From Candidatus Thiopontia autotrophica (GTDB taxonomy: Bacteria > Pseudomonadota > Gammaproteobacteria > GCF-002020875), in the NCBI GenBank assembly GCA_014384675.1, contig JACNFK010000014.1, positions 1,213-65,212 of the forward strand: a stretch of DNA of 64,000 bases. Direction: 5' to 3'. The notes under the pieces are model-generated. The model made no database searches. It saw only the letters and a list, made by a program, of their open reading frames with translations, and was not told the origin of the DNA. Shown piece after piece: positions 5,142-28,884 of this stretch; position 1 is the first letter of the stretch; each line of letters begins with the position of its first letter. The position numbers were made by a program, and so were the translations under genes.

Positions 5142-7709
5142 ATGACTGAATTTGCAAAGGAAGTCCTCCCTGTAAACATCGAGGAGGAGATGCGGCAGTC
5201 GTACCTTGACTACGCCATGAGCGTGATTGTCGGGCGTGCGCTCCCAGATGCCAGAGATGGCCTTAAACCTGTCCATCGTCGAGTGCTCTATGCGATGCAT
5301 GAGCTGGGGAATGACTGGAATAAATCCTACAAGAAATCGGCCCGCATTGTCGGTGACGTAATTGGTAAGTACCACCCTCATGGTGATACCGCGGTTTACG
5401 ATACGATTGTCCGTATGGCGCAGCCATTCTCGCTACGTTACATGCTGGTTGATGGTCAGGGTAACTTCGGTTCGGTGGATGGTGACTCCGCTGCCGCAAT
5501 GCGTTACACCGAGATCCGGATGTCAAAGATCGCCCATGATCTATTGGCTGACCTGGATAAGGAGACTGTCAATTTTACCCCCAACTACGATGAGAGTGAG
5601 CATGAGCCCTCCATCCTTCCGACCCGTCTGCCAAATCTACTGATCAACGGTTCTGAGGGAATTGCAGTAGGGATGGCAACCAAGATTCCTCCCCATAGTC
5701 TGACTGAGGTGGTTAGCGCAACAATAGCACTGGTTGATAATCCGGAGCTGGATATTGCTGGATTGATGGAGCATGTTCCTGGACCAGATTTCCCGACAGG
5801 GGCTATTATCAATGGGGTCAAGGGGATTCATGAGGCCTACAAGACGGGCCGTGGTCGTATATATTTGCGTGCGCGCACCCATATTGAGGGTGAAGAGGGG
5901 AAGAAGCAGACCCTGGTAGTTGATGAACTCCCATACCAAGTCAACAAGGCGAGACTGCTGGAGCGTATCGGTGAGCTGGTGCGCGAGAAGAAGTTGACCG
6001 GAATATCTGCCCTGCGTGACGAGTCCGATAAGGATGGCATGCGCATGGTGATTGAGCTGAAGAGGGGAGAGGTGGCGGACGTCGTTCGCAACAACCTCTT
6101 CAAGCAGACTGCTATGCAGAATGTCTTCGGCATCAATATGGTGGCGTTGGTTGATGGTCAGCCTCGTCTGATCAATCTGAAGCAGGCGCTTGAGGTGTTC
6201 ATTCGTCACCGCCGCGAGGTAGTAACTCGTCGTACTATATTTGAGCTACGCAAGGCACGTGAGCGTGCCCACGTACTGGAGGGGTTGGCGATTGCGTTAA
6301 CCAATATTGACCCTATTATTGCGCTGATCAAATCATCAGCAACACCAGCTGAAGCCAGAGAGAAGCTGGGATCGCAGGGGTGGCCGCCAGGAATCGTGGT
6401 GGAGATGCTGGATCGTGGCGATGCTGCAGATACCCGTCCCGAGGGGCTGGCTGATGGTTATGGTCTGATTGATGATCTATATCACCTCTCTCCAGTGCAG
6501 GTGCAGGCAATTCTTGATCTTAAACTTCACCGCCTTACCGGGCTGGAGAAGGAGAAAATTCTGGATGAGTACAGGGCCCTGCTGGAGAAGATTGGAGAGC
6601 TGCTCAATATCTTGCGCAATCCTGATCGCCTTATGGAGGTGATCCGTGAAGAGCTGGTAGAGATGCGGGACAAATATGGAGATGAGCGCAAGACCGAGAT
6701 TGTGCAGACTCAGGTAGATCTCTCGTTGGAGGATCTGATTAGTGAGGAGGATGTAGTTGTTACTCTTTCTCATGGTGGCTACGTCAAGGCGCAACCGGTT
6801 GCAGATTATCGCGCACAGCGCCGAGGTGGTCGTGGCAAGACGGCGGCAGCGATAAAGGATGAGGACTTTGTTGACAAGCTGGTTGTTGCCAATACCCATG
6901 ACACCATTCTCTGTTTCTCAACCAGAGGACGTCTCTATTGGTTGAAGGTGTATCAGTTACCGCAGGCTGGACGCACGGCTCGTGGAAAACCGATCAACAA
7001 CCTGCTTCCGCTGGAGGATGGGGAGCGTATTACCGCATTCCTGCCAGTGAGGGAATATAGTGAAGACAAGTTCATATTCATGGCGGCCACAAGCGGTATT
7101 GTTAAAAAGACACCTCTGACCGCATTTTCACGCCCCAGAACTGCAGGCATCATTGCTGTAGAGCTGAGGGATGATGATGAGCTGGTTGGGGTAGAGCTGA
7201 CTGGCGGGAGTAGTGACATTATGCTCTTTGCCAGCGGTGGCAAGGCGGTTCGTTTCCCTGAGTCGACAGTGCGGGCTATGGGACGTACAGCGCGCGGGGT
7301 CAAGGGAATGCGGCTCAATGTCGGTGAGCGCATTATCTCACTACTGGTTCCACAAAGGAGTCATGTTTTGACTGCAACCGAGCATGGGTTTGGCAAGCGC
7401 ACCTCGCTGGAGGAGTACCCATGCAAGGGCAGGGGAACCAAAGGGGTGATCTCAATTCAGACGTCAGAACGAAATGGTGCTGTTGTAGGTGCGGTTCAGG
7501 TTGATGAGGGAGAGGAGATCATGATGATCTCCAGTGGCGGTGTGCTGGTTCGTACCCGTGTGTCCGAGGTCTCCGTTTTGGCGCGCAATACCCAGGGTGT
7601 AACCCTTATTCGTCTGGGAGATGATGAGAGGTTGGTCGGGATCGAGCGTGTTGAGGAGAGTGAGGTGGAAGAAGCGGAAGAGGCAGTAGAGAATAGTGAA
7701 GATGAGTAA
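5142..7709 (+). CDS. gyrA: DNA gyrase subunit A
   Basis: 855 aa. The N-terminus ([29 protein letters not shown]) is the canonical GyrA motif, and the protein has an acidic C-terminal tail. Confidence 0.97.
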
Positions 7710-8845: not shown

Positions 8846-10006
8846 ATGAACAAGATTCTTACACTAAACAATATATCTGTGGCTGGGCTGGATCGTCTGC
8901 CACGTGACAACTATGAGGTTGCCTCCGAGATCCAGCATCCGGATGCAATCCTGCTGCGCTCCTACAAAATGCACGATATGGAGATCCCTGAGACCCTGAA
9001 AGCGGTTGGTCGTGCTGGTGCCGGGGTGAACAATATTCCGGTCGAGAAGATGACTGAGCATGGAATTCCGGTATTTAATGCCCCTGGTGCAAATGCCAAT
9101 GCGGTAAAGGAGCTGGTGATCTCCAGCATGTTGATGGCAAGTCGTAATATTGCCCAGGCGTGGAATTATGCAAAGAATCTCGAAGGAGATGATGCCTCCA
9201 TTGCCAAAAATGTCGAGGCAGGGAAGAAAAAATATGTCGGTTTTGAGCTGCCCGGACGTACCCTCGGGGTAATTGGTCTGGGTGCTATTGGGGTGCAGAT
9301 TGCCAATGCGGCAATCTCGCTGGGAATGAAGGTTATCGGTTATGATCCATCAGTAACAATTCAGAGCGCATGGAATCTCTCCTCCGAAGCGGTTCGTGCC
9401 CACAGTGTGGACGAGCTTCTGACAGAGGCCGATTTCATCACTTTTCATGTTCCGTTGATTGATGCGACAAAGAACATGATCAACGAAGATCGCCTCAAGA
9501 TCATGAAAGATGGCGTTGTGATAATGAACTTTGCCCGCGGCGGCATTGTTGATGATGCTGCTGTTCTGGAGGCCCTGGATTCTGGTAAGGTCTATGCGTA
9601 TATTAATGACTTCCCTACCAATGAGAACAAGGATCATCCCCGAGTAGTCTGTCTGCCACATCTGGGAGCATCTACTGCAGAGGCAGAGGACAACTGTGCC
9701 ATCATGGTTGCAGATCAGGTCAAGGACTACCTGGAGAATGGAAACATCACCAACTCGGTCAACTTCCCTGAGATGAAGATGCCACGGGCAGGTTCAGCGA
9801 GGATTGCAGTAGCGAACTCCAATGTTCCAAACATGGTGGGGCAGATAACCTCACTGTTGGCAGATGCTGGAATCAATATTGTTGATATGATGAACAAGTC
9901 GAGAGATGAGATCGCATACAACCTGCTTGATGTTGATGGAGATATGGATGATGTTGAGGAGAAGATTCGAGCTATTGAGGGGGTTTTGTCGGTTCGTATT
10001 ATTTAA
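8846..10006 (+). CDS. serA: D-3-phosphoglycerate dehydrogenase (2-hydroxyacid dehydrogenase with a C-terminal ACT-like domain)
   Basis: Contains a GxGxxG NAD-binding fold (GVIGLGAIGVQIA) and D-isomer-specific dehydrogenase catalytic residues. It is a 386 aa short-form PGDH. Confidence 0.75.
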   Translation: MNKILTLNNISVAGLDRLPRDNYEVASEIQHPDAILLRSYKMHDMEIPETLKAVGRAGAGVNNIPVEKMTEHGIPVFNAPGANANAVKELVISSMLMASRNIAQAWNYAKNLEGDDASIAKNVEAGKKKYVGFELPGRTLGVIGLGAIGVQIANAAISLGMKVIGYDPSVTIQSAWNLSSEAVRAHSVDELLTEADFITFHVPLIDATKNMINEDRLKIMKDGVVIMNFARGGIVDDAAVLEALDSGKVYAYINDFPTNENKDHPRVVCLPHLGASTAEAEDNCAIMVADQVKDYLENGNITNSVNFPEMKMPRAGSARIAVANSNVPNMVGQITSLLADAGINIVDMMNKSRDEIAYNLLDVDGDMDDVEEKIRAIEGVLSVRII

Positions 10007-11130: not shown

Positions 11131-12249
11131 ATGGCCACTTGTGACATCCATGAATATGCCATGTCTGGAGTTCAGGGTATCAACCCATACCAGCCAGGCA
11201 AGCCAATCTCCACGCTGGCTCGTGAGATTGGAATGGATGAGTCTGCAATCATCAAGCTTGCATCCAACGAAAACCCGTTGGGGCCGTCTGCCAAGGTAAC
11301 GGAGGCCGTCTCCAGCGTACTTGGCGAGCAGTCTCGTTACCCCGATGGCGGAGCTGTTGAGTTACGAGATCGACTGGCTCAGCACCATGAATGCAATCCT
11401 GCGCAGATAACTGTCGGTAATGGGTCTAATGATGTGTTGGATCTGATTGCCAGAACATTTCTTGGCGAGGGGCGTTCTGCGGTCATGTCTGAACACGCCT
11501 TTGCGGTCTATCCGCTCTCCACCCAGGCTGTTGGTGCCTCCTCGGTTGTAACCCCGGCAAAGGAGTGGGGACATGATCTGGATGCAATGGCTGGTGCTGT
11601 CAGGGACGATACTCGTGTTGTCTGGATAGCTAACCCCAATAATCCAACAGGCAGCTGGGTTGATAGTGATGCACTGCACAGCTTTTTATTACAGCTACCA
11701 CAGGATGTGGTGGCGGTGGTTGATGAGGCCTATATAGAGTTTGTGGAAGATGATGATTATCCAGACAGCTCTCTCTGGCTGGGCCAATTTCCCAATCTGA
11801 TAGTGACCCGTACATTCTCCAAGGCATATGGCCTGGCCGGCTACAGAATAGGTTATGCACTATCCAGTGAGACCATTGCTGATCTGCTAAACCGTGTGCG
11901 TCAGCCATTCAATGTGAATACTCTGGCCCAGGCGGCAGCAATGGCTGCTCTTGATGACCAGGACCATATTCAGCGGGGGGTTGAGTTGAATCGAATCGAG
12001 ATGAGAAAGATGGAGCAGGGATTTGATCAGCTTGGTCTGAAATGGATTCCATCAGCAGGTAATTTTGTCTCGGTTGATATTGGACAGTCGGCAATGCCAG
12101 TTTTTGATGCCATGCAGAGAGAGGGAGTGATTGTGCGCCCTGTCGGTAACTATGGAATGGCTAACCATCTACGAATATCCATTGGCCTGCCTGACGAGAA
12201 CAGTCGTTGCCTGCAGGTGTTGACCAAAATATTGAGGGGGCAGCAATGA
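11131..12249 (+). CDS. hisC: Histidinol-phosphate aminotransferase
   Basis: Closely resembles Pseudomonas HisC2 (NPYQPGKP...KLASNENPLG...RTFSKAYGLAGYRIGY). Confidence 0.88.
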   Translation: MATCDIHEYAMSGVQGINPYQPGKPISTLAREIGMDESAIIKLASNENPLGPSAKVTEAVSSVLGEQSRYPDGGAVELRDRLAQHHECNPAQITVGNGSNDVLDLIARTFLGEGRSAVMSEHAFAVYPLSTQAVGASSVVTPAKEWGHDLDAMAGAVRDDTRVVWIANPNNPTGSWVDSDALHSFLLQLPQDVVAVVDEAYIEFVEDDDYPDSSLWLGQFPNLIVTRTFSKAYGLAGYRIGYALSSETIADLLNRVRQPFNVNTLAQAAAMAALDDQDHIQRGVELNRIEMRKMEQGFDQLGLKWIPSAGNFVSVDIGQSAMPVFDAMQREGVIVRPVGNYGMANHLRISIGLPDENSRCLQVLTKILRGQQ

Positions 12250-13103
12250 TCAAGCGTCTTGCACTGATTGGGGTTGGATTGATTGGGGGGTCACTGGTGC
12301 GCGCACTTCGCGGTCAGAATGTGGTGGCTGAGGTTGTTGGTTATGGAAGAGACCGGGAAAATCTGCAGCGGGCAGTTGAGTTGGGAGTTATTGATGAGAT
12401 TGCGACAACTGTAGCCGATGCGGTAACGGGTGCAGATGTGGTTGTGGTTGCAACCCCACTTGGATCCATGCGCTCGGTCTTTGCAGAGATGGCTGATCAC
12501 CTCTCATCTGAGGTGATAATTACTGATGTGGGGAGTGTAAAGGGTAGTGTTGTTGAGGATGCCAGAACCGTTTTTGGAGCTGTTCCTGTACGCTTTATCC
12601 CCGGCCACCCAATTGCAGGTACAGAGAGAAGCGGGGTAGAGGCGTCACTCACCGATCTATATCAAGATCGTCGAGTAATTCTTACCCCACTTGAGAATAG
12701 CGATCCTGAGGCACTTCGTGTTGTAACGGAAATGTGGCAGGCAACAGGTGCAGATGTTGTAGAGATGAACATTGAGCACCATGACAAGGTGCTGGCTGCA
12801 ACCAGCCACCTCCCTCACCTGCTCGCCTACGCCCTGGTAGATTCACTTGCCAGGCAAGAGTCCCATAGCGAGATCTTCCGCTTTGCCGCAGGTGGATTTC
12901 GTGACTTCAGCCGCATTGCATCCAGCAACCCAACCATGTGGCGTGATATATCCCTGGCCAATAGAGAACACCTGTTACAGGCAATAGATCTATTTCAGGA
13001 TGAGCTTGATCAGGTAAAGAGGATGGTCAGATCTGAAGATGGGGCATCACTACAGGAGCTGTTTTCACGTGCCAAACAGGCACGGGATGAACACTACGAA
13101 TAG
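12246..13103 (+). CDS. tyrA: Prephenate dehydrogenase
   Basis: MIKRLALIGVGLIGGSL Rossmann motif. The ATG at 12246 overlaps the hisC stop (ATGA), so the ORF-track start at 12207 is probably an N-terminal over-extension. Confidence 0.85.
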   Translation: MIKRLALIGVGLIGGSLVRALRGQNVVAEVVGYGRDRENLQRAVELGVIDEIATTVADAVTGADVVVVATPLGSMRSVFAEMADHLSSEVIITDVGSVKGSVVEDARTVFGAVPVRFIPGHPIAGTERSGVEASLTDLYQDRRVILTPLENSDPEALRVVTEMWQATGADVVEMNIEHHDKVLAATSHLPHLLAYALVDSLARQESHSEIFRFAAGGFRDFSRIASSNPTMWRDISLANREHLLQAIDLFQDELDQVKRMVRSEDGASLQELFSRAKQARDEHYE

Positions 13104-13113
13104 AAGAGGGAGC

Positions 13114-13141
13114 GGGTATAATCCGCGCAAATTAATAGCAG
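13114..13141. repeat. Left copy of a 28 bp direct repeat (GGGTATAATCCGCGCAAATTAATAGCAG) flanking the fic cassette
   Basis: The same 28-mer recurs at 14462-14489 with one mismatch. Confidence 0.85.
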
Positions 13142-13197
13142 CAATTACGGTGACAGTTTACTGAATACACTTAATTCACCACCTTCGGGCCATGTTT

Positions 13198-14316
13198 CTA
13201 CGGCCTCAAGGCGCGTCCCGTAGAAAAGGGTGCCAACTGATACCTGGAGTTTCTGCCTCCACCTGGCAACTGCTCGATGGCCCCTGTTTTTAACAGTGCA
13301 GAGAGGTCACGATAAGCTGTCGCTCTGGAGCAGTGACAGATAGTCTCGTACTTTTTAGTACTTATGCCTCCCTCAAAACCTTTCGTCCCTTCGGCAAATA
13401 CTCGATTGATCATTTTGATCTGCCTCTTGTTTAGATCAGTTTTATGCCTCTCCCAGAACCGTGCTTTTCCCAAAACAAAATCAACCTCTGTTTTGGCAAT
13501 ATCTTGAGCACTGTTAATTTCAGAGATAAAAAATTCAATCCATTCATTTAGATTGAGGTTGCCGCATGATATTTTTTGCAACTGTGAATAATACTCTTTA
13601 CGGTTATGTTCTATGGCCGTTGCAAGACAGGCGAGTGTTGACTGGTTAAGAGATTGAGAAAGTGCATGGTCGGCAATGGCCCTTCCAACACGCCCATTCC
13701 CATCATCAAAAGGGTGAATAATCTCAAACCATGCATGCGCAACCGCAGCCTGAATAGGCCCAGGAAGAGAGGTGCTATTGTACCAAGTGAGCATTACTGC
13801 CATCTCTTCGTAAATATGCTCTGCAGGCGGTGCCTCATAATAGACTCGCCTTTTACCATAATGACCGCCAACAATTTGCATCGGCTCGGGTGAATTACGA
13901 TACATTCCGCGTGTGATTAGGCTTAGTGGTTGGTGTGTGATAACCATCGATTGCCATCTGCCGAGCAGTTCATCGCTCAATGGGCTATTCCATTCGTTTC
14001 TAACATCAACCATCAGAGCTGCTGCACCCACTGCTTTTGTATCTTTATGAGTGGGTGCGGTAGAGTCTTTCGCAATCAGTTGCATAATTGAAGAACGAAC
14101 TGATTCACGATCTAGCATTTCACCCTCAATAGCACTGGTTTTAATGGCCTCAGAGAGCATTAAAGAGACGGTAGCATCAGTTTGATAACTAGCAGGCAAT
14201 GCATCAACTGTTCCCATTAAACGGGCGGATTTAAGTTTAAAGTGTTCTATTTCCACACTAAAAGCACTTGAATCAAACTCAAAGTTGGGCCAGTTTTTAT
14301 TTTGCCATGTCCACAT
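13198..14316 (-). CDS. Fic family protein (AMPylation / Fic-DOC domain)
   Basis: Carries the canonical Fic motif HPFDDGNGRVGR and a C-terminal winged-helix-like tail. It is inserted between tyrA and aroA on the opposite strand. Confidence 0.8.
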   Translation of the reverse strand: MWTWQNKNWPNFEFDSSAFSVEIEHFKLKSARLMGTVDALPASYQTDATVSLMLSEAIKTSAIEGEMLDRESVRSSIMQLIAKDSTAPTHKDTKAVGAAALMVDVRNEWNSPLSDELLGRWQSMVITHQPLSLITRGMYRNSPEPMQIVGGHYGKRRVYYEAPPAEHIYEEMAVMLTWYNSTSLPGPIQAAVAHAWFEIIHPFDDGNGRVGRAIADHALSQSLNQSTLACLATAIEHNRKEYYSQLQKISCGNLNLNEWIEFFISEINSAQDIAKTEVDFVLGKARFWERHKTDLNKRQIKMINRVFAEGTKGFEGGISTKKYETICHCSRATAYRDLSALLKTGAIEQLPGGGRNSRYQLAPFSTGRALRP

Positions 14317-14389
14317 GAAGCGATGATAATCATTATTCGCTTCAAAATCAACTTTAAAATGAAGCGAATAATAGCGCTATTCGCTTCAA
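14316..14389. promoter_or_regulatory. Cluster of overlapping inverted repeats at the fic start and 5' region
   Basis: The unit TTATTCGCTTCA and its complement TGAAGCGAATAA occur several times. One example is TTATTCGCTTCA-N15-TGAAGCGAATAA, a perfect 12 bp stem. This looks like an operator or attenuator. Confidence 0.4.
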
Positions 14390-14461
14390 AATGCCCTTGC
14401 CATAGGTGTCCGGTTGTGCGCATCCACGCATTGCGTAATACGATACATTAGATGGGGGAAT

Positions 14462-14489
14462 GGGTATAATTCGCGCAAATTAATAGCAG
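14462..14489. repeat. Right copy of the 28 bp direct repeat (GGGTATAATTCGCGCAAATTAATAGCAG)
   Basis: It matches 13114-13141 at 27 of 28 positions and lies immediately upstream of the aroA RBS. Confidence 0.85.
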
Positions 14490-14493
14490 GGTA

Positions 14494-15813
14494 ATGAACA
14501 AGATGTCAGGTTTAAAATTCAAGGTGCAGCCAGGGGGCAGGTTGCAGGGGACAATCCGTGTTCCTGGGGACAAATCAATTTCTCACCGCTCAATCATGTT
14601 CGGTTCTCTGGCAGAGGGGACTACGGAAGTCTCCGGTTTTCTTCAGGGAGATGATAGTCTGGCCACCCTGAATGCATTTCGTCAGATGGGCGTTGAGATT
14701 GAGGGGCCAATCGATGGAAAAGTAACTATACATGGGGTTGGAATGGATGGGTTGACCAGGCCCGATGCCCCGCTTTATCTGGGTAATTCCGGTACATCCA
14801 TGCGTCTGCTCTCGGGACTTCTTGCGGGACAGAAATTTGATGTAACCCTTGCTGGAGATGAATCTCTCTCGGGTCGTCCGATGGGGCGGGTTATAAATCC
14901 ATTGGGAGAGATGGGGGCAGAGATCAGAAGTAATTCTGATGGTACAGCTCCTCTCCAGATCTCTGGCGGTGCAGAGCTGAAGGGTATCGATTACGAGATG
15001 CCAATGGCCAGTGCTCAGGTAAAATCATCACTCCTGCTTGCTGGTCTCTATGCCGATGGTGATACCTGCGTTACCGAGCCTGCCCCCACACGTGACCATA
15101 CCGAGAGAATGCTCACCGGTTTTGGGGTGGAGGTAAAACGAGATAGCAACAAAGTATGCCTTAGTGGAGGCGGCTCACTGAAGGCAACCAAAGTGGATGT
15201 TCCGGCAGATATCTCCTCGGCGGCCTTCTTCCTGGTTGGGGCCTCAATTGCAGATGGGTCTGACTTGACCCTGCAGCATGTTGGGATGAATCCAACCAGG
15301 ATCGGGGTGATCAATATCCTGAGAGAGATGGGGGCAAATATTGAGGTGTTGAATGAGAGGATTTCCGGTGGTGAGCCAGTGGCTGATCTTCGGGTTCAAT
15401 CTGCACCACTTCATGGAATAGAGATTCCTGTGGATCAGGTTCCTCTGGCAATTGACGAGTTTCCGGTGCTATTTGTTGCTGCTGCCTGTGCTGATGGAGA
15501 GACAACTCTTACCGGGGCAGAGGAGCTGCGGGTCAAGGAGAGTGACCGGATACAGGTGATGGCAGATGGGCTAACTACTCTGGGGGTAGATGCCAGGCCA
15601 ACTCCTGATGGAGTTGTGATTCAGGGTGGAAACATTGGTGGGGGGACTGTCTATTCGCACCATGACCACCGCATCTCAATGTCATTTGCAATGGCTGGGT
15701 TGCGGGCCACGGCACCAATCGAGATTGAGGGGTGTGACAACGTAAATACGTCTTTCCCCGGGTTTGCATCCCTGGCCTCTGGAGCAGGACTTCATATAGA
15801 GGAGGAGTTATGA
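14494..15813 (+). CDS. aroA: 3-phosphoshikimate 1-carboxyvinyltransferase (EPSP synthase)
   Basis: LQGTIRVPGDKSISHRSIMFGSLAEG and LGNSGTSMRLL are EPSPS hallmarks. Confidence 0.93.
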   Translation: MNKMSGLKFKVQPGGRLQGTIRVPGDKSISHRSIMFGSLAEGTTEVSGFLQGDDSLATLNAFRQMGVEIEGPIDGKVTIHGVGMDGLTRPDAPLYLGNSGTSMRLLSGLLAGQKFDVTLAGDESLSGRPMGRVINPLGEMGAEIRSNSDGTAPLQISGGAELKGIDYEMPMASAQVKSSLLLAGLYADGDTCVTEPAPTRDHTERMLTGFGVEVKRDSNKVCLSGGGSLKATKVDVPADISSAAFFLVGASIADGSDLTLQHVGMNPTRIGVINILREMGANIEVLNERISGGEPVADLRVQSAPLHGIEIPVDQVPLAIDEFPVLFVAAACADGETTLTGAEELRVKESDRIQVMADGLTTLGVDARPTPDGVVIQGGNIGGGTVYSHHDHRISMSFAMAGLRATAPIEIEGCDNVNTSFPGFASLASGAGLHIEEEL

Positions 15814-20903: not shown

Positions 20904-22361
<1,458 letters not shown>

Positions 22362-22384
22362 TTACAAGATGAGAAAATGGAGAG

Positions 22385-22990
22385 ATGAGTATAGATAGAG
22401 AGAAAGATTGCGCACTGCTTAATGAGCTCAAACAGGATCTTGTATTTCAGGACAATCTGCTTGGTACCCAACTTACATTCAATACTACCTGGGGGATTTT
22501 TAGCCCAAGAGGGATAGATGATGGGACCCATCTGTTGCTGAAATATCTGGAGGTGGAGGCTGATGAGACAATTATTGATATCGGTTGTGGGTATGGTCCT
22601 CTAGGTTTGGCTCTGGGGGGGCAGGCACCTGATGGAGAGGTTCATATGGTGGATAGAGATTATGTGGCTGTAGAGTATGCAAATAAAAATGCCAAAATAA
22701 ACAGGATGAGTCACTGTCGGGCATATACCTCCAATGGATTTAGCGAAGTACCAGAGAGCATGCGTTTTGACACAGTTGTATCCAATGTGCCGGCAAAAGT
22801 TGGTCGAGAGATGTTGACCATTTTATTGTGTGATGCCAGGTCCAGAATGAATCCCGGGGGGCAGATTGTGGTTGTTACAATCAATGGGTTGCGTGATTTT
22901 ATCAAGCGTAATTTCAAAGAGGTATTTGGGAACTACAAAAAACTCAAGCAGGGCAAGGCCTATACTGTGGCCAGAGCAATCATGGAGTAG
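22385..22990 (+). CDS. Class I SAM-dependent methyltransferase (MTS small domain, RsmC/RlmG-like)
   Basis: IDIGCGYGPLGLALGG SAM-binding motif and ...VVSNVPAKVG. 201 aa. Confidence 0.6.
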   Translation: MSIDREKDCALLNELKQDLVFQDNLLGTQLTFNTTWGIFSPRGIDDGTHLLLKYLEVEADETIIDIGCGYGPLGLALGGQAPDGEVHMVDRDYVAVEYANKNAKINRMSHCRAYTSNGFSEVPESMRFDTVVSNVPAKVGREMLTILLCDARSRMNPGGQIVVVTINGLRDFIKRNFKEVFGNYKKLKQGKAYTVARAIME

Positions 22991-22993
22991 CCT

Positions 22994-24382
22994 CTAAGGC
23001 TCCATGTCATACTGGCTAATCAGCCTTCTCAGGCGTGGGCGAGATACCCCCAGAATTTCACAGGCCCTTCCCTTATGCCATCCTGTGGCATCCAGAACGC
23101 GCAGTACATGTTCTCGCTCAACCTCTTGCAGAGATCGATTGACCTGGTCACTGACTGTTTCTGCCCGTTGCAGGGTTGAGTTCAGAGATTGATTCGGAAG
23201 GTCGCTTGCAAGAGCGCCGCTACAGAGATTTTCAGGTATCAGATCTGGGGTTATGGAGTCTCCTGGAGATAGTGCAACAAGCTTGGTTAGCAGGTTTTCC
23301 AGTTCACGAATATTCCCGGGCCAATCATACTGCTGAAAACAGTTGATAACCTCCATGCTTATCTGGCTTACATTTCTTCCCAGTTCACTGTTGATACGAT
23401 CCAGCAGGCTACGTACCAGATCCAGCAGATCATCCTTGCGTTCACGAAGTGGTGGAATATGGATAGTTACTACCTGGAGTCGATAGAATAGATCGGCACG
23501 GAACTCACCATTTTTAACCCGCTCATCAAAATCTATATTGGTAGCAGCTATAACACGTGCATTGTTGGTGATTGGATACTTGCCACCAACTGGAGTGAAC
23601 TCCTTCTCTTGTAGTACACGCAGTAATTTTGCCTGCATGTTTGGTGAGAGCTCTCCAATTTCATCAAGAAATATGGTTCCTCCCGAGGCAAGCTCAAATT
23701 TGCCAAGTTGTTTGGATGTGGCGCCGGTGAATGAGCCTTTTTCATGACCAAAAAGATCTGATTCCAGCAGGGTTTCGACAACGGCAGCACAATTTACGGC
23801 CACAAATGGACCGTCTGCAAGCTTTCCAGAGTTATGAATAGCATTGGCTACCAGCTCTTTTCCTGTGCCACTCTCTCCGGTAATAAGAACTGTGGCTGGG
23901 CTCTGTGCCACCATACCGATGGTCTTGAAAACCTCTCGCATCACATTGCTGTGGCCAACCATGGTTGAGCGGCTACTTGATGTGGATGCAGGTTCAACCA
24001 TCTGCTCAGTAGGACCATCTTGTGCCAGCAGGCGGGCTATCGACTGATCAAGTTCATCGATATCAATTGGTTTATGAATATAGTCATCAGCACCATTCTG
24101 CATTGCCTGAATAGTGCTCTCCATATCATGAAATGCAGTAATCATGATTATGTGTGCCTTGGGGAAAGTAGTAACAAATTCTGGTAGCCCCTCCAGTCCG
24201 GTTTTCCCCGGCATCTTAATATCGAGAATAATGATTTCAGGGGGGAGAGGCAGGGCTGATCCGGATGCGATTCCTTTATCAACACTGTGGCTGGTTGTAA
24301 CACTGTGCCCCTGCGCACCAAAATGGAGTTTAAGGGTTCTGCAGCTTGCCTCATCGTCATCGACAATTAATATATTTGCCAT
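22994..24382 (-). CDS. Sigma-54-dependent two-component response regulator (NtrC family: receiver, AAA+ and Fis-type HTH domains)
   Basis: Receiver domain (ILIVDDD...ILDIKMPG), a GESGTGKELVANAIH Walker A motif and a C-terminal HTH. Confidence 0.9.
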   Translation of the reverse strand: MANILIVDDDEASCRTLKLHFGAQGHSVTTSHSVDKGIASGSALPLPPEIIILDIKMPGKTGLEGLPEFVTTFPKAHIIMITAFHDMESTIQAMQNGADDYIHKPIDIDELDQSIARLLAQDGPTEQMVEPASTSSSRSTMVGHSNVMREVFKTIGMVAQSPATVLITGESGTGKELVANAIHNSGKLADGPFVAVNCAAVVETLLESDLFGHEKGSFTGATSKQLGKFELASGGTIFLDEIGELSPNMQAKLLRVLQEKEFTPVGGKYPITNNARVIAATNIDFDERVKNGEFRADLFYRLQVVTIHIPPLRERKDDLLDLVRSLLDRINSELGRNVSQISMEVINCFQQYDWPGNIRELENLLTKLVALSPGDSITPDLIPENLCSGALASDLPNQSLNSTLQRAETVSDQVNRSLQEVEREHVLRVLDATGWHKGRACEILGVSRPRLRRLISQYDMEP

Positions 24383-24425
24383 AATTCAGCTCTCTCTAAA
24401 TAATCTATATGCGGAAGGACAATTG

Positions 24426-27095
24426 TCATGACTTGCTTGTGGTTTCAGCCGTATCATCAAGTTTTTTGGTTTTAATGAATGTTGTCGGTGCTCTGTCTGC
24501 TTCAGTATCTGGAATATTATGTTTCATGTGGGTAACCGGAAGCGTAATAACTACACAAGTGCCAACCCCATTATTGCTCTCCATGGATATGGTTCCATTG
24601 TGTTGTTCAATAACTCGTTTAACGATAGCCAGCCCAAGTCCTGTCCCCTTTGATCGGCTGGTGACAAAAGGCTCAAAGATTTCGTCTCTGTTTGATTCAT
24701 CTATCCCTGTGCCATTGTCGCAGATCTCTAGCTGGATGATTGAGCCATCATCATGCAGATCCATGCGTGCATTGATGATTATTTTTGGTCTGTCTGGGGC
24801 TGCTTCGGTAATCGCATGGATTGCATTGCTTAGCAGGTTGGTTAATACACGACGCATCTTGGTTTTGTCGACCTGTATTGTGGGTAGGCCGGCTGGATAG
24901 TGGGTGATTACGTCAATGCTGTTTTCAATGATCTGTTTTTGAATGGCATTGATTGCGGTCTCGGTTAATTTATCAAGGCTGCTCCAGGAGAGATCCAGTT
25001 CATCTGGTCGGGAATATGCGAGTAGCCCGTCCAGAATACTCTCCATGTAACGAATCTGTTGTAGCCCAATTTCATGCAACTCTCTATCTTCAGCGTTTCC
25101 GCCCTCTTTTTTGCTGAGAATCTGTAGCCCCATTTTGATGGATGAGAGAGGGTTGCGCAGATCATGAGCAACCATGCTGGCCATGCGTCCAACTACAGCA
25201 AGAGTCTTGGCTTGTGCTAACTCATCTTTTCGTTTCCGAATCTCCTCTTCAAGATCTTTTTGTGCAGTGATATCTTCCTTAACGGAGAGGAAGTGAGTTA
25301 TCTCACCATCTTCGTTGCGAATTGGTGACATAAGGGCGGACTCCCAATATAGTTCACCGCTCTTCTTTCTATTATGAAGGATGCCGCGCCACTCTTTTCC
25401 ACTACTGATTGTCTGCCACAGATCTCTGTACTCTTCTGGAGAGGTGTCTCCTGATTTCAGGATGCGAGGGTTTTTTCCTATTACCTCTTGTGGCAGATAG
25501 CCGGTGAGTTCGGTGAATTTTGGATTGACGTACTCAATTCTGCCAGTTCTGTCTGTAATCAGGATTACAGCAGGGCTCTGTTCAGCAGCACGCGCCAGCT
25601 TGGTAAGCTCTTCACGAGTTTGGTGCTGCTCAGTAATGTCCTGTCCAATACAGGTGATGCTCTCTATCTGGTTTGCATCATTAATAGTGGTTGTTGAAGT
25701 CCATGCAATCAGTCTATTCTTGCCACGAAAATCAATAATATGAGACTCATGGTAAGTTGACCCCTGCAAGCCATCTTCTCCATCAAGAATCTGTTTTATC
25801 CCGTTTATACTGTCACCATCAGGAACAAAATTATCAAACCAGTTTTTTCCGATCACATCACTGCGACGTTTTCTGAGCAGGTGTAGCAGGTAGTTGTTGC
25901 AGAACAGGATGTTGCCATCCAGATCAATGGTGAGTGCGGCAAGATGTATCTCTTCAAGAGTGTCTCGGAAGCGCAGCTCATTTGCCCGCTGTAGCTCATG
26001 TTCCTCTCTGCGTATGATGTTGTTGGTGAGTAGCAATGACAGTAGTGAGATAAAGAAGAGAATTGCTATATAGAGCAATCTGTTTTTCTGCAGAAAACCA
26101 AGTGGCGTGGACTCAAGGTTGGATGTTGGCAGGTAAGAGATAACTTTCCAGTTATATCTATTTAGCTGATCTGTGCTGATTATATGGTCAGTTGTTCCTG
26201 CTCTTATCTGGGCAACCCTGAGAGGGTTTACAGTTATATGCGAGAAGAGGCCGTTTGCTGTAATGAACTGCCCGGATTTTGTGCCACTAATATGGCTCCA
26301 TTCACTTTTAAACTCACTACTGAAAATATTGTCAGGATTGCCCAGCATGAATCCCCACTCTTTTTCCGGATTATTATGGCTTAGCCAGTATCCGTCACTG
26401 TTAACCAGATGCACCCTGTCCGTAATAGAGGCCACAGCACTTCTGAAGTTGTTGACGAGATCGATACCAAGATAGTTGAGTACGATCATCCCCCGACGCT
26501 CACCAGAAGATGAGTAAATAGGGGTGACAAATCTGATAACAGGTTTGTATGGGGTCTCCAGGCTGTTATTCTCAATATTAAGGTCCATAGGAGACAGGTA
26601 GACCTCACCATCAAGAAGTTCGAGCCCCTCTTTGATGTAGTATCTGTCAGACTTGTTTTGCAACTCTGAATCTGCAACCGAGATTCCACCCTTGTTACTG
26701 TAGTTTATTCGGCAAAGCTCATTGCCGGAATCGTCTATATAACGGATCTGATCATATATTCCGTTGTTGTTGGCAAAACTCAGAAACAGCTGGTTGATGT
26801 CGCTCTTCTTTTGAGCCATTTCTGTCTTGTCTACAAACATGATGTTATCCATCTGTTCTGCAAGGAAGAGCAGGTCAGAGACAATCTTCGATATATCTTT
26901 TGTAATCATCTCCTCGGCAAGGTGAATATTTAGCTCTTCAGCTCGCTTGATTGCGTTACCACGCACCTCATAATCAGAGTAGAAATGGATAGTGGCAGCC
27001 ACAAACAGGACAACTATCATGGGTAAAAGGAAGAGCATTAACAGGCGGCTCTTCTTTAACAGTGATGGAGTGTAGTGGTGTAGCGTCATCCGCAA
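24426..27095 (-). CDS. Sensor histidine kinase with a periplasmic dCache-like domain, two PAS domains, HisKA and HATPase_c
   Basis: A TM helix (LLMLFLLPMIVVLFVAATI), a roughly 300 aa periplasmic domain, then a second TM. The H-box is MASMVAHDLRNPLSSIK. There is no receiver domain. Confidence 0.85.
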   Translation of the reverse strand: MRMTLHHYTPSLLKKSRLLMLFLLPMIVVLFVAATIHFYSDYEVRGNAIKRAEELNIHLAEEMITKDISKIVSDLLFLAEQMDNIMFVDKTEMAQKKSDINQLFLSFANNNGIYDQIRYIDDSGNELCRINYSNKGGISVADSELQNKSDRYYIKEGLELLDGEVYLSPMDLNIENNSLETPYKPVIRFVTPIYSSSGERRGMIVLNYLGIDLVNNFRSAVASITDRVHLVNSDGYWLSHNNPEKEWGFMLGNPDNIFSSEFKSEWSHISGTKSGQFITANGLFSHITVNPLRVAQIRAGTTDHIISTDQLNRYNWKVISYLPTSNLESTPLGFLQKNRLLYIAILFFISLLSLLLTNNIIRREEHELQRANELRFRDTLEEIHLAALTIDLDGNILFCNNYLLHLLRKRRSDVIGKNWFDNFVPDGDSINGIKQILDGEDGLQGSTYHESHIIDFRGKNRLIAWTSTTTINDANQIESITCIGQDITEQHQTREELTKLARAAEQSPAVILITDRTGRIEYVNPKFTELTGYLPQEVIGKNPRILKSGDTSPEEYRDLWQTISSGKEWRGILHNRKKSGELYWESALMSPIRNEDGEITHFLSVKEDITAQKDLEEEIRKRKDELAQAKTLAVVGRMASMVAHDLRNPLSSIKMGLQILSKKEGGNAEDRELHEIGLQQIRYMESILDGLLAYSRPDELDLSWSSLDKLTETAINAIQKQIIENSIDVITHYPAGLPTIQVDKTKMRRVLTNLLSNAIHAITEAAPDRPKIIINARMDLHDDGSIIQLEICDNGTGIDESNRDEIFEPFVTSRSKGTGLGLAIVKRVIEQHNGTISMESNNGVGTCVVITLPVTHMKHNIPDTEADRAPTTFIKTKKLDDTAETTSKS

Positions 27096-27418
27096 CGACT
27101 CCTTATCTCCAGTTCAACACGATCCAGATAATCGTCTAGGGATTCACCCCCGTCTCTGGGGACCAGAAAAATCAATTTTGCAGCAATCAGATAAGGTCTT
27201 CGCGCCCCATCTCCAGCTGGACGTTCATCCTGTAGATTGGCCTTCAGATAACGTAGTGCCTCTTCAGGATTTTCACAGTAGCGTGGGAGTGATACCTCAT
27301 CGGCATACCACTCAATAGCTGAAGAGACAGATAGCATCAGCACTACAACCACAACAACAAAAGGAAAAATCTTTCCAATTGGGAAGGCATCCGTATACAT
27401 GTTTTCCTGATTACTCAT
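27086..27418 (-). CDS. Small membrane-anchored protein of unknown function
   Basis: Single TM helix (FPFVVVVVVLMLSV). ATGA overlap with the HemY-like stop, and its own stop overlaps the kinase start, so it is translationally coupled in the operon. Confidence 0.4.
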   Translation of the reverse strand: MSNQENMYTDAFPIGKIFPFVVVVVVLMLSVSSAIEWYADEVSLPRYCENPEEALRYLKANLQDERPAGDGARRPYLIAAKLIFLVPRDGGESLDDYLDRVELEIRSRCG

Positions 27419-28884
27419 GATGTATGAAGCACCGAGTGGTCGGATGGTCTCCAAATTGAGCGAATGGTTGATACTGATGCAGTAGATGGAGAGATGTTCT
27501 CTTGTTTGAGAATCTCCGCTGATAAAATTTGCCCCTGGGCGATACGGTCACGTACTGAGACTCCTCCAATGTAGTTGGCAGCAATATGGATACCAGGGGA
27601 GGATGATATATTCGATTTTATCTGCTTCACTCGTGCAGCATATCTGCCATGGTATAGAGGTAGTGCGTCCTGGTGGCGGTGTAGTGTCACCATCTCTGGA
27701 GCCCCGTTAATTCCCAAAATTGGTTTAAGAGCAGAAACAGTTCTCTCTACAATCTCCTCACTCTTCCATTGCTGGATCTCCGGGTGACGTGCACCGCCCA
27801 GATATGTGGTTAGCAGAATCTTGCCCTCGGGGGCGCGATTGTTGAAAAGGCTGCTCATCCAGATATTGCCATTGAATGGTGTGTTCTCGGATTTCGGAGT
27901 AAGGAAGCCGGTACCATCCAGAGAGTGGTCAATCTGACCACGGTCAAAGCCTGTGTGCAGTACTGTGAGGGGGGCATATTCAATCCCGTCCAGAAGTCGA
28001 CTTGCCTCAGGGGATATCGAGCTTAGCAGAGTTGCAGTTACTGCTGCCGGGGTGCTGAAAATTATATGGTGAGCATCCTGTTCAATCTCTATGGATTGTG
28101 GGGATGACCTGTCATGGCCAAACAGACGCCATTTCGGGCTGTTGTTGGTTGATCCAGGTGCTCTTTCAATTGCTGTTGCCTCAAGATTGGTACGGAAGGT
28201 GATCCCCGACTGTCGTGCCAACTGTTCAACCAGGGTAGACATGCCTCCCTTAAAGGAGAAAGTCTCGGTAATGCATCCACTCTTTTTTCGATTGAATTTG
28301 TGAATCATGGCGCCTGCTGTCAGGCTACCATATCTCTTTTCCAGAGCAGTCAGTCTTCCAAGTGTTGCCTCGGCATTGGCCAGATCTGGATCGGAGGCCA
28401 GGGTTCCGGAGACAAATGGGTCCATCGCCTTTTCCAGAAGCTCTCTACCAAAACGGCGTGTAATAAACTCGCTAACCGTCTCATTCTCACTGCCACCACG
28501 AGGAATAAATGGCTCAGCCAGCATTCTCAGCCGTCCTCTCATGCTCCAGCTTTTAGAGAAGAGGACGCTCTGCATATTCATGGAGATGGAGTTGAGTTTC
28601 CCGTTGCTTAACAGGTATCGATTCTGCTCTGCAAGTTGGGTGCGACTGCTCTTTAGTTTCTCAAGCCCGCTCTTTGCTATCAGCTCAGCAACCTCGGGAC
28701 GGAAGTTCAGCAGCAGGGCTGCAGCCTGCTCCATTGTGTACCCATCATGCTCGGTGGTCTTTATCTTTCCTCCGGGTCGTTTGTCACGCTCCCAGATCTC
28801 CACCTCCATCCCGGCCTGGCTCAACCACCATGCAGTTGAAAGTCCGGAGATACCGCCACCAACAATCAATACCTTTTTGGTCAC
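27415..28884 (-). CDS. HemY-family FAD-dependent protoporphyrinogen/coproporphyrinogen oxidase homolog
   Basis: N-terminal VLIVGGGISGLSTAWWL dinucleotide fold. A central ETVSEFITRRFGRELLEKAMDPFVSGTLASDPD block resembles PPOX, and the C-terminus reads NYIGGVSVRDRI. Confidence 0.7.
   Translation of the reverse strand: MTKKVLIVGGGISGLSTAWWLSQAGMEVEIWERDKRPGGKIKTTEHDGYTMEQAAALLLNFRPEVAELIAKSGLEKLKSSRTQLAEQNRYLLSNGKLNSISMNMQSVLFSKSWSMRGRLRMLAEPFIPRGGSENETVSEFITRRFGRELLEKAMDPFVSGTLASDPDLANAEATLGRLTALEKRYGSLTAGAMIHKFNRKKSGCITETFSFKGGMSTLVEQLARQSGITFRTNLEATAIERAPGSTNNSPKWRLFGHDRSSPQSIEIEQDAHHIIFSTPAAVTATLLSSISPEASRLLDGIEYAPLTVLHTGFDRGQIDHSLDGTGFLTPKSENTPFNGNIWMSSLFNNRAPEGKILLTTYLGGARHPEIQQWKSEEIVERTVSALKPILGINGAPEMVTLHRHQDALPLYHGRYAARVKQIKSNISSSPGIHIAANYIGGVSVRDRIAQGQILSAEILKQENISPSTASVSTIRSIWRPSDHSVLHTS

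Follow-up and report, generated by a model that had tools for sequence, protein, structure and literature searches.

A Fic-domain gene between two copies of a putative aroA promoter core at the tyrA-aroA junction of Candidatus Thiopontia autotrophica

How does a gene for a Fic-domain protein come to lie, in opposite orientation, between the biosynthetic genes tyrA and aroA, and what do the two almost identical 28-nucleotide (nt) sequences that bracket it tell about its arrival? This question is raised by the tyrA-aroA junction of Candidatus Thiopontia autotrophica, a marine sulfur bacterium, from which a stretch of 64 kb was analysed as a whole (hereafter the window). With moderate confidence, we favour the account that a fic module entered a variable hotspot by recombination anchored on the conserved 28-nt sequence (hereafter the 28-mer), and that its cargo is a SoFic-like protein repressing its own gene. 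The evidence for this account comes from the anatomy of the insert, from the 28-mer in sister species, from the relationships of the fic gene and from the contents of the same junction in related genomes.

The fic insert and its flanking repeats

The repeat GGGTATAAT(C/T)CGCGCAAATTAATAGCAG occurs exactly twice in the window, both times on the + strand, also when 3 mismatches are tolerated. The two copies are 27/28 identical and differ at position 10, which is C in the left copy (13114-13141) and T in the right copy (14462-14489), the former beginning as GGGTATAATCCGCGC and the latter as GGGTATAATTCGCGC. In 100 dinucleotide-preserving shuffles no match to the 28-mer was obtained, with up to 3 mismatches (<=3) allowed. 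Exact search and Pfam hence confirm the starting point of a first-pass annotation of this DNA, namely that two 28-bp direct repeats bracket an intact, opposite-strand fic gene between tyrA and aroA. Its remark that no integrase accompanies fic is borne out as well: no integrase, transposase or recombinase was found in the insert or, up to about 10 kb away in both directions, in the syntenic core genes. The features of the junction are as follows.

12246-13103, + strand: tyrA (prephenate/arogenate dehydrogenase), 285 amino acids (aa), with Pfam domains PDH_N and PDH_C; stop codon TAG at 13101-13103
13104-13113, + strand: native tyrA trailer of 10 nt, AAGAGGGAGC; the closest relative (L191) is homologous up to about 13109
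13114-13141, + strand: left 28-mer, GGGTATAATCCGCGCAAATTAATAGCAG, apparently a displaced duplicate of the aroA-proximal putative promoter core, directed into the fic 3' end; 28/28 to the single copy of two sister species (L102 and L105)
13142-13197, no strand assigned: 56 nt of insert DNA following the left 28-mer and reaching to the fic stop codon, without significant similarity to sister loci, fic-homologue loci or the aroA leader
13198-14316, - strand: fic, coding for an intact class II Fic protein of 372 aa (DUF4172, Fic and, at the C-terminus, a helix-turn-helix domain (HTH)); Pfam DUF4172 85 bits, Fic 54.3 bits (cut-off 24)
14315-14392, - strand: fic regulatory region with two 34-nt direct repeats (14315-14348 and 14359-14392), found by repeat search
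14393-14461, no strand assigned: 69 nt that join the fic regulatory region to the right 28-mer and may be the decayed tyrA 3' end with TAG and trailer (anchored and gapped comparisons below)
14462-14489, + strand: right 28-mer, GGGTATAATTCGCGCAAATTAATAGCAG, in native position upstream of aroA, with the probable -10 element of the aroA(-cmk) promoter and a GC-rich stretch; same place relative to the aroA ATG in L102, L105 and L191
14490-15813, + strand: aroA leader GGTAATGAACAAG followed by aroA (EPSP synthase), 436 aa from ATG 14503; Pfam EPSP_synthase 401 bits; leader conserved in L102 and L105

Native homology to the relatives stops at about 13109 and restarts at 14461, and in the stretch 14461-14560 the window is 93% identical to the sister species. 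At the place equivalent to the tyrA trailer L191 carries ATAGAGGAGAG. The lineage-specific insert appears to measure 1.3 kb (about 13142-14461) and to be composed of 56 nt, the fic module and 69 nt. The spacer reconstructed for the time before the insertion (TAG, AAGAGGGAGC, one 28-mer, GGTAATGAACAAG and ATG) amounts to 51 nt, a normal length for a tyrA-aroA junction. According to the repeat search, no inverted repeats span the fic insert.

The similarity between the two repeat copies extends to their 5' side. Ungapped extension lengthens the pair to 41 nt (13101-13141 and 14449-14489, 36/41 identical), with the extended left copy starting on the tyrA stop codon TAG. Of the 13 nt 5' of the 28-mers, 9/13 match between the copies (background 3.3, P about 0.002), and 19/40 match in the 40 nt upstream of them (P about 0.0015). 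A gapped local alignment of 14393-14461 with the tyrA 3' end yielded P = 0.028. This suggests, but does not prove, that the duplicated unit was once longer (~70 nt) and that its unconstrained part has since decayed. Downstream of the two 28-mers, including the aroA leader and coding start, no significant similarity was detected.

The arrangement was found in 24/24 conspecific contigs read, and the Fic protein has index entries in 37 blocks of the collection. The exact sequence of the 285-aa TyrA is on record as Ca. Thiopontia autotrophica (indexed in 40 blocks, of which 24 contigs were read), and the exact Fic protein is likewise recorded as a protein of a metagenome-assembled genome (MAG) of this species. 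Since conspecific contigs share it, the order tyrA-fic-aroA is not an assembly artefact. That a chance match or an assembly error underlies the repeats has a negligible probability: the generic possibility of chimeric joins in MAGs is set against 0/100 shuffles, the 24 concordant contigs, of which four were fetched from two independent sequencing runs and match the window at 99.99-100%, and the length of the repeat, whose 28 nt stay below the k-mer size of the assembly given in the titles of some contigs (k141).

The 28-mer as putative aroA promoter core

Two sister species, represented by L102/L103 (TyrA 82% identical) and L105 (75%), possess a single 28-mer which is identical to the left copy of the window at 28/28 positions. 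In L102 and L105 it is located directly 5' of aroA and is followed by the 13-nt leader (GGTAATGA..AAG) and the ATG. In L191, the closest relative, the first 15 nt of the 28-mer (GGGTATAATTCGCGC) are kept and the remainder has drifted. With regard to the C/T difference, the left copy agrees with L102 and L105 and the right copy with L191, which is compatible with several histories. Coding DNA between these species is only 75-90% identical, and the conserved 28-mer is therefore under constraint. It holds a perfect TATAAT and then a GC-rich CCGCGC, and is situated 20-41 nt before the aroA start. The perfect TATAAT, the position and the conservation across species lead us to posit that the 28-mer is most likely the core of the aroA promoter.

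Other identities of the 28-mer were considered. An RNA element is ruled out, as the 28-mer has no match in Rfam and no folding signal beyond that of shuffled sequences. So is a dispersed repeat: besides its two occurrences in the window, the 28-mer gave 0 matches in JGI metagenome and viral contigs, and among the 197 fetched loci it is restricted to the conspecific loci and to the sister loci L102, L103 and L105. At the start codon of a plasmid-borne Sedimenticola fic homologue (L197, 3975-4001) there is a dyad, GGGCAAATTAGCGGTTATAATTTGCCC, that has GCAAATTA and TATAAT in common with the window 28-mer, probably by chance.

These comparisons also bear on the idea, put forward in the first-pass annotation, that the original tyrA-aroA spacer was duplicated on insertion. 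The repeated sequence is indeed native, and L102 and L105 each have it once, just 5' of aroA. A target-site duplication of the classical kind is not demonstrated, because inverted repeats and a transposase were not found, the duplication, with at least 28 nt, greatly exceeds the usual lengths, and the copies differ at 4/13 outer versus 1/28 inner positions.

Foreign origin of fic

The tyrA neighbourhood was extracted from 80 GTDB genomes and 80 metagenome contigs, to which contigs encoding the closest TyrA homologues were added. In 122 of the 160 relatives aroA follows tyrA directly and on the same strand; the gap between the two genes has a median of 28 nt and a 90th percentile of 120 nt. A Fic gene at the tyrA-aroA junction, be it with or without repeats, was found in 0/160 of these loci. 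According to our analysis, fic is a foreign gene gained by this lineage only. Base composition, which the first-pass annotation had proposed to compare, backs a foreign origin only moderately. GC content (44.7%) and GC content at third codon positions (GC3, 39.9%) of fic are below those of the neighbouring genes (51-53% and 46-56%, respectively) and correspond to the 6th percentile of equal-sized windows.

The nearest homologue of the window Fic (L094-L101; 77% identity at the aa level) resides in an unrelated glycogen-metabolism cluster of another organism, where no flanking repeats were found around it and where, in one strain, it adjoins an IS3-family element. Nucleotide homology to this foreign locus covers window positions 13256-14388 at 79% identity and therefore includes 72 nt upstream of the fic start codon. 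In the coding region of the homologue (L094, 6530-6629; same in L095-L101), 42-nt tandem repeats add a SDQYHLRSSRDNTT-like loop that the window protein does not have. More distant Fic homologues are encoded in 465 plasmid records, including one mobilisable Sedimenticola plasmid. Phage records and viral contigs contained 0 relatives of this Fic, ruling out a phage origin.

The tyrA-aroA junction as a defence hotspot

In the closest relatives of the window the same junction is occupied by other genes, mostly of type I restriction-modification (R-M) systems, or by their remains. Its states, apart from that of the window itself, are as follows.

L102/L103, sister species: co-oriented 8-kb island with hsdM, hsdS, an AlbA_2/Schlafen ATPase, an open reading frame (ORF) of 68 aa, a DUF6364/PIN pair and hsdR
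L105, sister species: hsdM, hsdS, a 303-aa Fic/DOC protein of another subfamily, and hsdR
L191, closest relative: 356-bp spacer with an hsdR 3' relic
L107, L194 and L005, outgroups: empty, spacers of 209-232 bp, no 28-mer
L110, outgroup: empty, spacer of ~75 nt, no 28-mer

The core flanks are hence found with four states in four congeneric species: fic, R-M with AlbA_2/PIN, R-M with the 303-aa Fic, and the hsdR relic. The type I R-M islands of the two sister species span roughly 6-8 kb, and PADLOC recognized type I methyltransferase (MTase), S and restriction endonuclease (REase) among their genes. The two Fic proteins matched different PADLOC profiles, SoFic in the window and PDC-S04 in L105. 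The relic of L191 (2312-2700) shows 79-80% identity to the sisters over a stretch that reaches from the 3' end of hsdR up to and including the start of aroA, and its translation corresponds to the C-terminal ~95 aa of HsdR. The R-M islands of L102 and L105 have a conserved left junction, and the 28-mer is present only on their right side, with nothing similar on the left. In or near the sister islands there was no integrase, transposase or tRNA. The sisters' hsdR-aroA spacer showed no significant similarity to window positions 14393-14461, nor to the tyrA 3' end.

A neighbour-joining tree of 2575 aligned residues gave the order (((L190/L191, window), L102), L105), L107, L110 and placed the window within the clade that bears the R-M island. 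This island was likely present in the ancestor shared by the four species and was then lost in the window lineage; relics of R-M genes were found neither in the window insert nor in the outgroup spacers. The tyrA-aroA spacer hence represents, at the level of the genus, a defence hotspot that is flanked by core genes and has no integrase. Seen in this light, the notion that fic splits a conserved junction holds for the adjacency of tyrA and aroA in most relatives, but the junction was apparently not pristine and previously held a type I R-M island. As for the empty site with one 28-mer, for which the first-pass annotation proposed to look, direct repeats mark both junctions of the insert and L102 and L105 have a single 28-mer, but the sister sites are occupied by another island, and a clean empty site with the 28-mer was not found.

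A second cassette in this hotspot resembles that of fic. In L102 (15457-15495 and 16425-16463; same in L103) a 39-nt direct repeat with 37/39 identical positions brackets a 968-bp segment that comprises the 68-aa ORF, a DUF6364 antitoxin-like gene and a PIN toxin. The repeat is a duplicate of hsdR codons 3-15: the right-hand copy is functional, the left-hand one a relic in which the start codon has decayed. In L105, which does not have the PIN cassette, the hsdR-start sequence occurs once. The fic and PIN cassettes seem to carry one signature in the same hotspot, namely a duplication of 28-39 nt that corresponds to the 5' edge of the downstream gene.

Further observations concern variation at the junction. 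The Fic/DOC protein of L105 (13738-14649; 303 aa, PADLOC PDC-S04-like), encoded between hsdS and hsdR, is unrelated to the window Fic, and Fic-domain cargo would therefore have reached the hotspot twice independently. Of the metagenome contigs of the sister species many break off at the insert: L190, L192 and L193 stop 17 nt past tyrA, and L087-L089, L092 and L104 stop inside hsdM/hsdS. Between L102 and L103 (12381-15316) hsdS (411 versus 378 aa) and the AlbA_2/Schlafen ATPase (566 versus 484 aa) differ in islands that are otherwise identical. These contig breaks and gene differences suggest strain-level variation at the hotspot. The tyrA-aroA junction is occasionally invaded in distant gammaproteobacteria too, as exemplified by L132 (3487-5529), where an opposite-strand TonB-dependent receptor without flanking repeats lies at the junction, and by L031/L032 (about 6844-7399) with a small ORF.

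The Fic protein and its regulatory region

The window Fic contains the active-site motif HxFx(D/E)GNGRxxR (HPFDDGNGRVGR, residues 201-212, encoded at 13681-13716) and, N-terminal to the Fic core, the inhibitory motif (S/T)xxxE(G/N) in the form TSAIEGE (residues 60-66, 14119-14139). Both motifs are invariant in an alignment of 10 sequences, the window protein and 9 homologues. Truncation of fic at the junction is ruled out, as the protein is full length and only its naturally variable C-terminal tail fails to align. The best match among solved structures was CbFic2 (PDB 8cil; E = 9e-79, residues 2-361 versus 6-369), to which the HTH region could be aligned as well. The PADLOC profile of SoFic (PDLC03963) matched with E = 3.3e-43 (residues 11-360 on profile positions 17-350 of 361), and the match to SoFic structures reached only E = 2e-9. 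The protein shares the SoFic architecture but is not an orthologue, because it misses the cut-off of the NCBIfam SoFic equivalog NF046030 (52.7 bits, cut-off 550 bits). We regard it as a member of a paralogous subfamily that, judged by these matches, is closer to CbFic2 than to SoFic.

The search for an adjacent antitoxin gene, also suggested by the first-pass annotation, came out negative: no credible small partner ORF, AS1-like or other, was found beside fic, and only 56 nt separate the fic stop codon from the left 28-mer. A separate antitoxin is not expected either, because a class II Fic carries its own inhibitory helix, here with TSAIEGE. The AS1-type antitoxin gene may perhaps not be universal in the SoFic family.

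Upstream of fic, each of the two 34-nt repeats contains a dyad, TGAAGCGA...TCGCTTCA (14316-14344 and 14360-14388; folding z = -4.3). The predicted minus-strand fic promoter, TTGATT-17-TATCAT (14351 to 14323), overlaps the first of them. The dyad region is kept in the fic locus of L094-L101 as a TGAAGCGAATA pair 44 bp apart, and in the plasmid homologue another dyad occupies the corresponding position. By analogy with related proteins we infer that fic may be autorepressed through binding of the HTH domain to the dyads, and that its product may act in abortive-infection defence in the manner of SoFic.

How the cassette may have entered

The course of events that we favour would start from a common ancestor with a type I R-M operon in the tyrA-aroA spacer. 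In the window lineage this operon would have been lost and its place taken by fic. The cassette would have entered just 3' of the 28-mer, leaving one copy beside tyrA and another that still serves aroA. Entry may have occurred by recombination without an element-encoded recombinase, anchored on the conserved 28-mer or on aroA. A circular or looped donor could have been taken up in a single crossover of the Campbell type, or the event could have been one of homology-facilitated illegitimate recombination. Only those products in which the 5' region with the promoter remains intact before aroA-cmk, and likewise before hsdR, would then be retained by selection. A promoter before aroA-cmk would be selected because the convergent fic interrupts read-through from tyrA. 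The cargo would be an AMPylating toxin that is held in check by its N-terminal inhibitory helix, autorepressed through binding of the HTH domain to the dyads, and employed in abortive-infection defence.

Several points weigh against this account. Recombination of the RecA type is inefficient on 28 nt. Among the sampled relatives and conspecifics neither the donor nor an empty-site allele was found; the conspecific population is clonal, for which reason no empty-site allele was obtained from it. Mosaic tracts in aroA or tyrA pointing to a donor among the sampled relatives were not visible. The similarity to the tyrA 3' end upstream of the right copy, if real, would make the duplication old, and the perfect left 28-mer would then need selection or conversion. 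A consensus promoter scan returned no -35/-10 pair at either 28-mer. The loss of the R-M island is likely but not certain, because the internal branches of the tree are short and the argument is one of parsimony only. Finally, the Fic protein falls short of the SoFic equivalog cut-off, and we know of no phage-defence test for this Fic subfamily.

The first alternative, to which we assign a low probability, is that the insert is the remnant of a site-specific integration or a cis-mobilisable cassette. The 28-mer would be the att core, with reuse of attB, and a tyrosine recombinase would be encoded elsewhere or would have been deleted. The near-perfect direct repeats bracket the insert exactly, one at each native junction, and a size of 28 nt is typical of att cores. 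In addition, the genus shows repeated occupation of the tyrA-aroA site, and the sequence preceding the right copy may imitate the tyrA 3' end in the way of the attP arms of gene-end-targeting elements. However, no integrase or recombinase was found in the insert or in the core genes within about 10 kb, neither in the window nor in the sister loci, the sister R-M islands have the 28-mer on their right side only, the 28-mer is without match in viral contigs and JGI metagenomes, and the window does not contain a tRNA. A XerC/D dif site or integron attC is likewise improbable, as the 28-mer, compared by eye, does not resemble the E. coli dif consensus and inverted core sites were not seen.

About as improbable is the proposal that the left 28-mer has been kept by selection, either as an antisense promoter that, on top of read-through from tyrA, damps the toxic fic or as a second site for a factor acting on the aroA promoter. 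This proposal would account for the contrast between the left copy, which is 28/28 identical to the functional copy of the sisters, and its surroundings, where the adjacent 13 nt match at 9/13 and the next 27 nt at about 37%. If these flanks are a decayed duplicate, a neutral 28-mer should carry several changes (P about 0.05 by our own estimate). No terminator was predicted between tyrA, the left copy and fic, and wild-type SoFic-type proteins are toxic on expression (PMC12249575). On the other hand, the similarity of the flanks may be due to chance and the duplication simply young, and the unameliorated GC content of fic suggests a recent arrival. A -35 element was not found at the left 28-mer and an antisense promoter was not seen at the L094 homologue. 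To our knowledge, no comparable antisense promoter has been described for Fic genes.

Still less probable, in our view, is a true target-site duplication with a long stagger (28 to about 70 nt) that would have produced the 39-nt duplication of the PIN cassette as well. The attraction of this mechanism is that two independent cassettes of ~1 kb each have a duplication of 28-39 nt 5' of or inside the downstream gene, and that the reconstructed spacer of 51 nt is normal for the junction. Bacterial transposases, however, are known to give duplications of 2-15 bp, and the two cases do not share terminal inverted repeats, a transposase or common cassette ends. Neither the fic homologue of L094-L101 nor the TonB-receptor insertion of L132 has flanking repeats. 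Moreover, if the duplication comprises 41 nt, its outer 13 nt differ at 4 positions and its inner 28 nt at 1, which is unlike a simple recent duplication. An ordinary transposon or insertion sequence is ruled out, given no terminal inverted repeats, no transposase ORF and a duplication of at least 28 nt.

With a comparably slim chance, cassettes bearing copies of a conserved host patch may shuttle between orthologous sites by a so far unrecognised, recombinase-poor route, be it short-homology recombination or a long-stagger integrase, and the left 28-mer may in addition be an antisense promoter that tames Fic. In summary, recombination anchored on the 28-mer, with a SoFic-like autorepressed cargo, is the account that we retain.

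Genomic surroundings

The gene order around the insert is gyrA-serC-serA-like-pheA-hisC-tyrA-[fic]-aroA-cmk-rpsA-ihfB-lapA-lapB. From gyrA upstream to beyond lapB the genes are syntenic core genes, and the insert itself holds fic only. The flanking genes agree with the Pseudomonas-like serC-pheA-hisC-tyrA-aroA-cmk-rpsA block described previously for this DNA, but that description omitted the serA-like gene for a D-2-hydroxyacid dehydrogenase with ACT domain (8846-10006) between serC and pheA. Neither tRNA nor transfer-messenger RNA (tmRNA) genes are present in the window.

With respect to gene starts, the mechanical ORF of tyrA begins at TTG 12207 and overlaps hisC, and gene callers choose ATG 12246. 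For aroA a second in-frame ATG exists upstream, at 14494; ATG 14503 is favoured because L191 is without the upstream ATG. The region 21000-28000 of the window has a lower GC content (about 45%) and, by ORF sizes, shares synteny with outgroup L107 in a set of core genes (pyrF, purB, a methyltransferase and a sigma-54 response regulator), for which reason it does not look like an island.

Significance and comparison with known systems

The locus illustrates that a tightly conserved biosynthetic junction can serve as an exchange point for defence genes. In a genus of uncultured marine sulfur oxidisers, an R-M island, the remnant left by its decay and a single SoFic-like Fic appear to have been swapped without a visible mobility gene. 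The duplicated putative promoter core would be a testable footprint of such integrase-less turnover and of an essential downstream gene that keeps its promoter. Furthermore, a CbFic2-like Fic with dyads in a non-pathogen may be useful for the distinction between a self-regulated defence toxin and a host-targeting effector.

CbFic2 of Coxiella burnetii (8CIL) is a class II Fic whose activity is switched by DNA binding (PMC10628234). It resembles the window Fic in its DUF4172 domain with TSAIEG at residues 62-67, in the motif HPFDDGNGR(I/V)GR (HPFDDGNGRIGR) and in the C-terminal HTH (PMC10628234). Unlike the window Fic, which belongs to a free-living marine sulfur oxidiser and lies in a defence hotspot, CbFic2 has been studied for its role as a secreted effector, by which histone H3 of the host is modified. 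A further difference is that the window fic has upstream dyads, which suggest sequence-specific autoregulation. A precedent for the latter is CccR of Yersinia pseudotuberculosis, which is described in PMC10628234 as repressing its own promoter by binding palindromes. CccR shares the order of DUF4172, Fic and winged HTH (wHTH) domains, and the counterpart of its palindromes in the window would be the two dyads overlapping the predicted fic promoter; it differs in being an effector of a type VI secretion system (T6SS) and in its distant sequence.

SoFic is a toxic abortive-infection defence protein, and the E. coli SoFic is accompanied by a small downstream antitoxin, AS1, of 47 aa (PMC12249575). 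The SoFic proteins of Shewanella and E. coli, as recognized by PADLOC and DefenseFinder, have in common with the window Fic the three-domain architecture and the occurrence as a lone gene in a variable region near other defence genes. In contrast, the window Fic is not a SoFic equivalog (52.7 versus 550 bits) and has no AS1-like ORF downstream. A role in phage defence is suggested only indirectly, by association with the R-M island that the sister species carry at the same site.

Defence hotspots that are flanked by core genes and contain no mobility genes have been described as cDHS1/2 of Pseudomonas aeruginosa and in some E. coli (PMC10250203, PMC10121019). As in these, the window junction combines fixed core flanks with varying defence cargo, without an integrase, and exchange probably takes place through the flanks. 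Unlike these, it is of far smaller size (0.3-8 kb), lies inside an amino-acid biosynthesis operon and not beside a tRNA or tmRNA, varies at the genus instead of the strain level, and has one junction marked by a duplicated putative promoter core.

Displacement of genes beside a conserved anchor, attributed to homology-facilitated illegitimate recombination, is known from T6SS effector-immunity arrays and from Rhs C-termini (PMC3240628, PMC5361080). There, too, a conserved anchor adjoins a variable region and a displaced relic remains next to the new module, a pattern that fits the 28-mer relic of the window as well as the hsdR-5' relic of L102. The relics in those systems are genes or gene ends beyond the anchor, whereas here they would be 28-39 nt of the anchor itself. 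Overall, the locus combines known kinds, namely an integrase-less, core-flanked defence hotspot and a Fic protein of the SoFic/CbFic2 type, in what is fairly ordinary gene turnover, and the unusual detail is the 28-39-nt duplications around small toxin cassettes.

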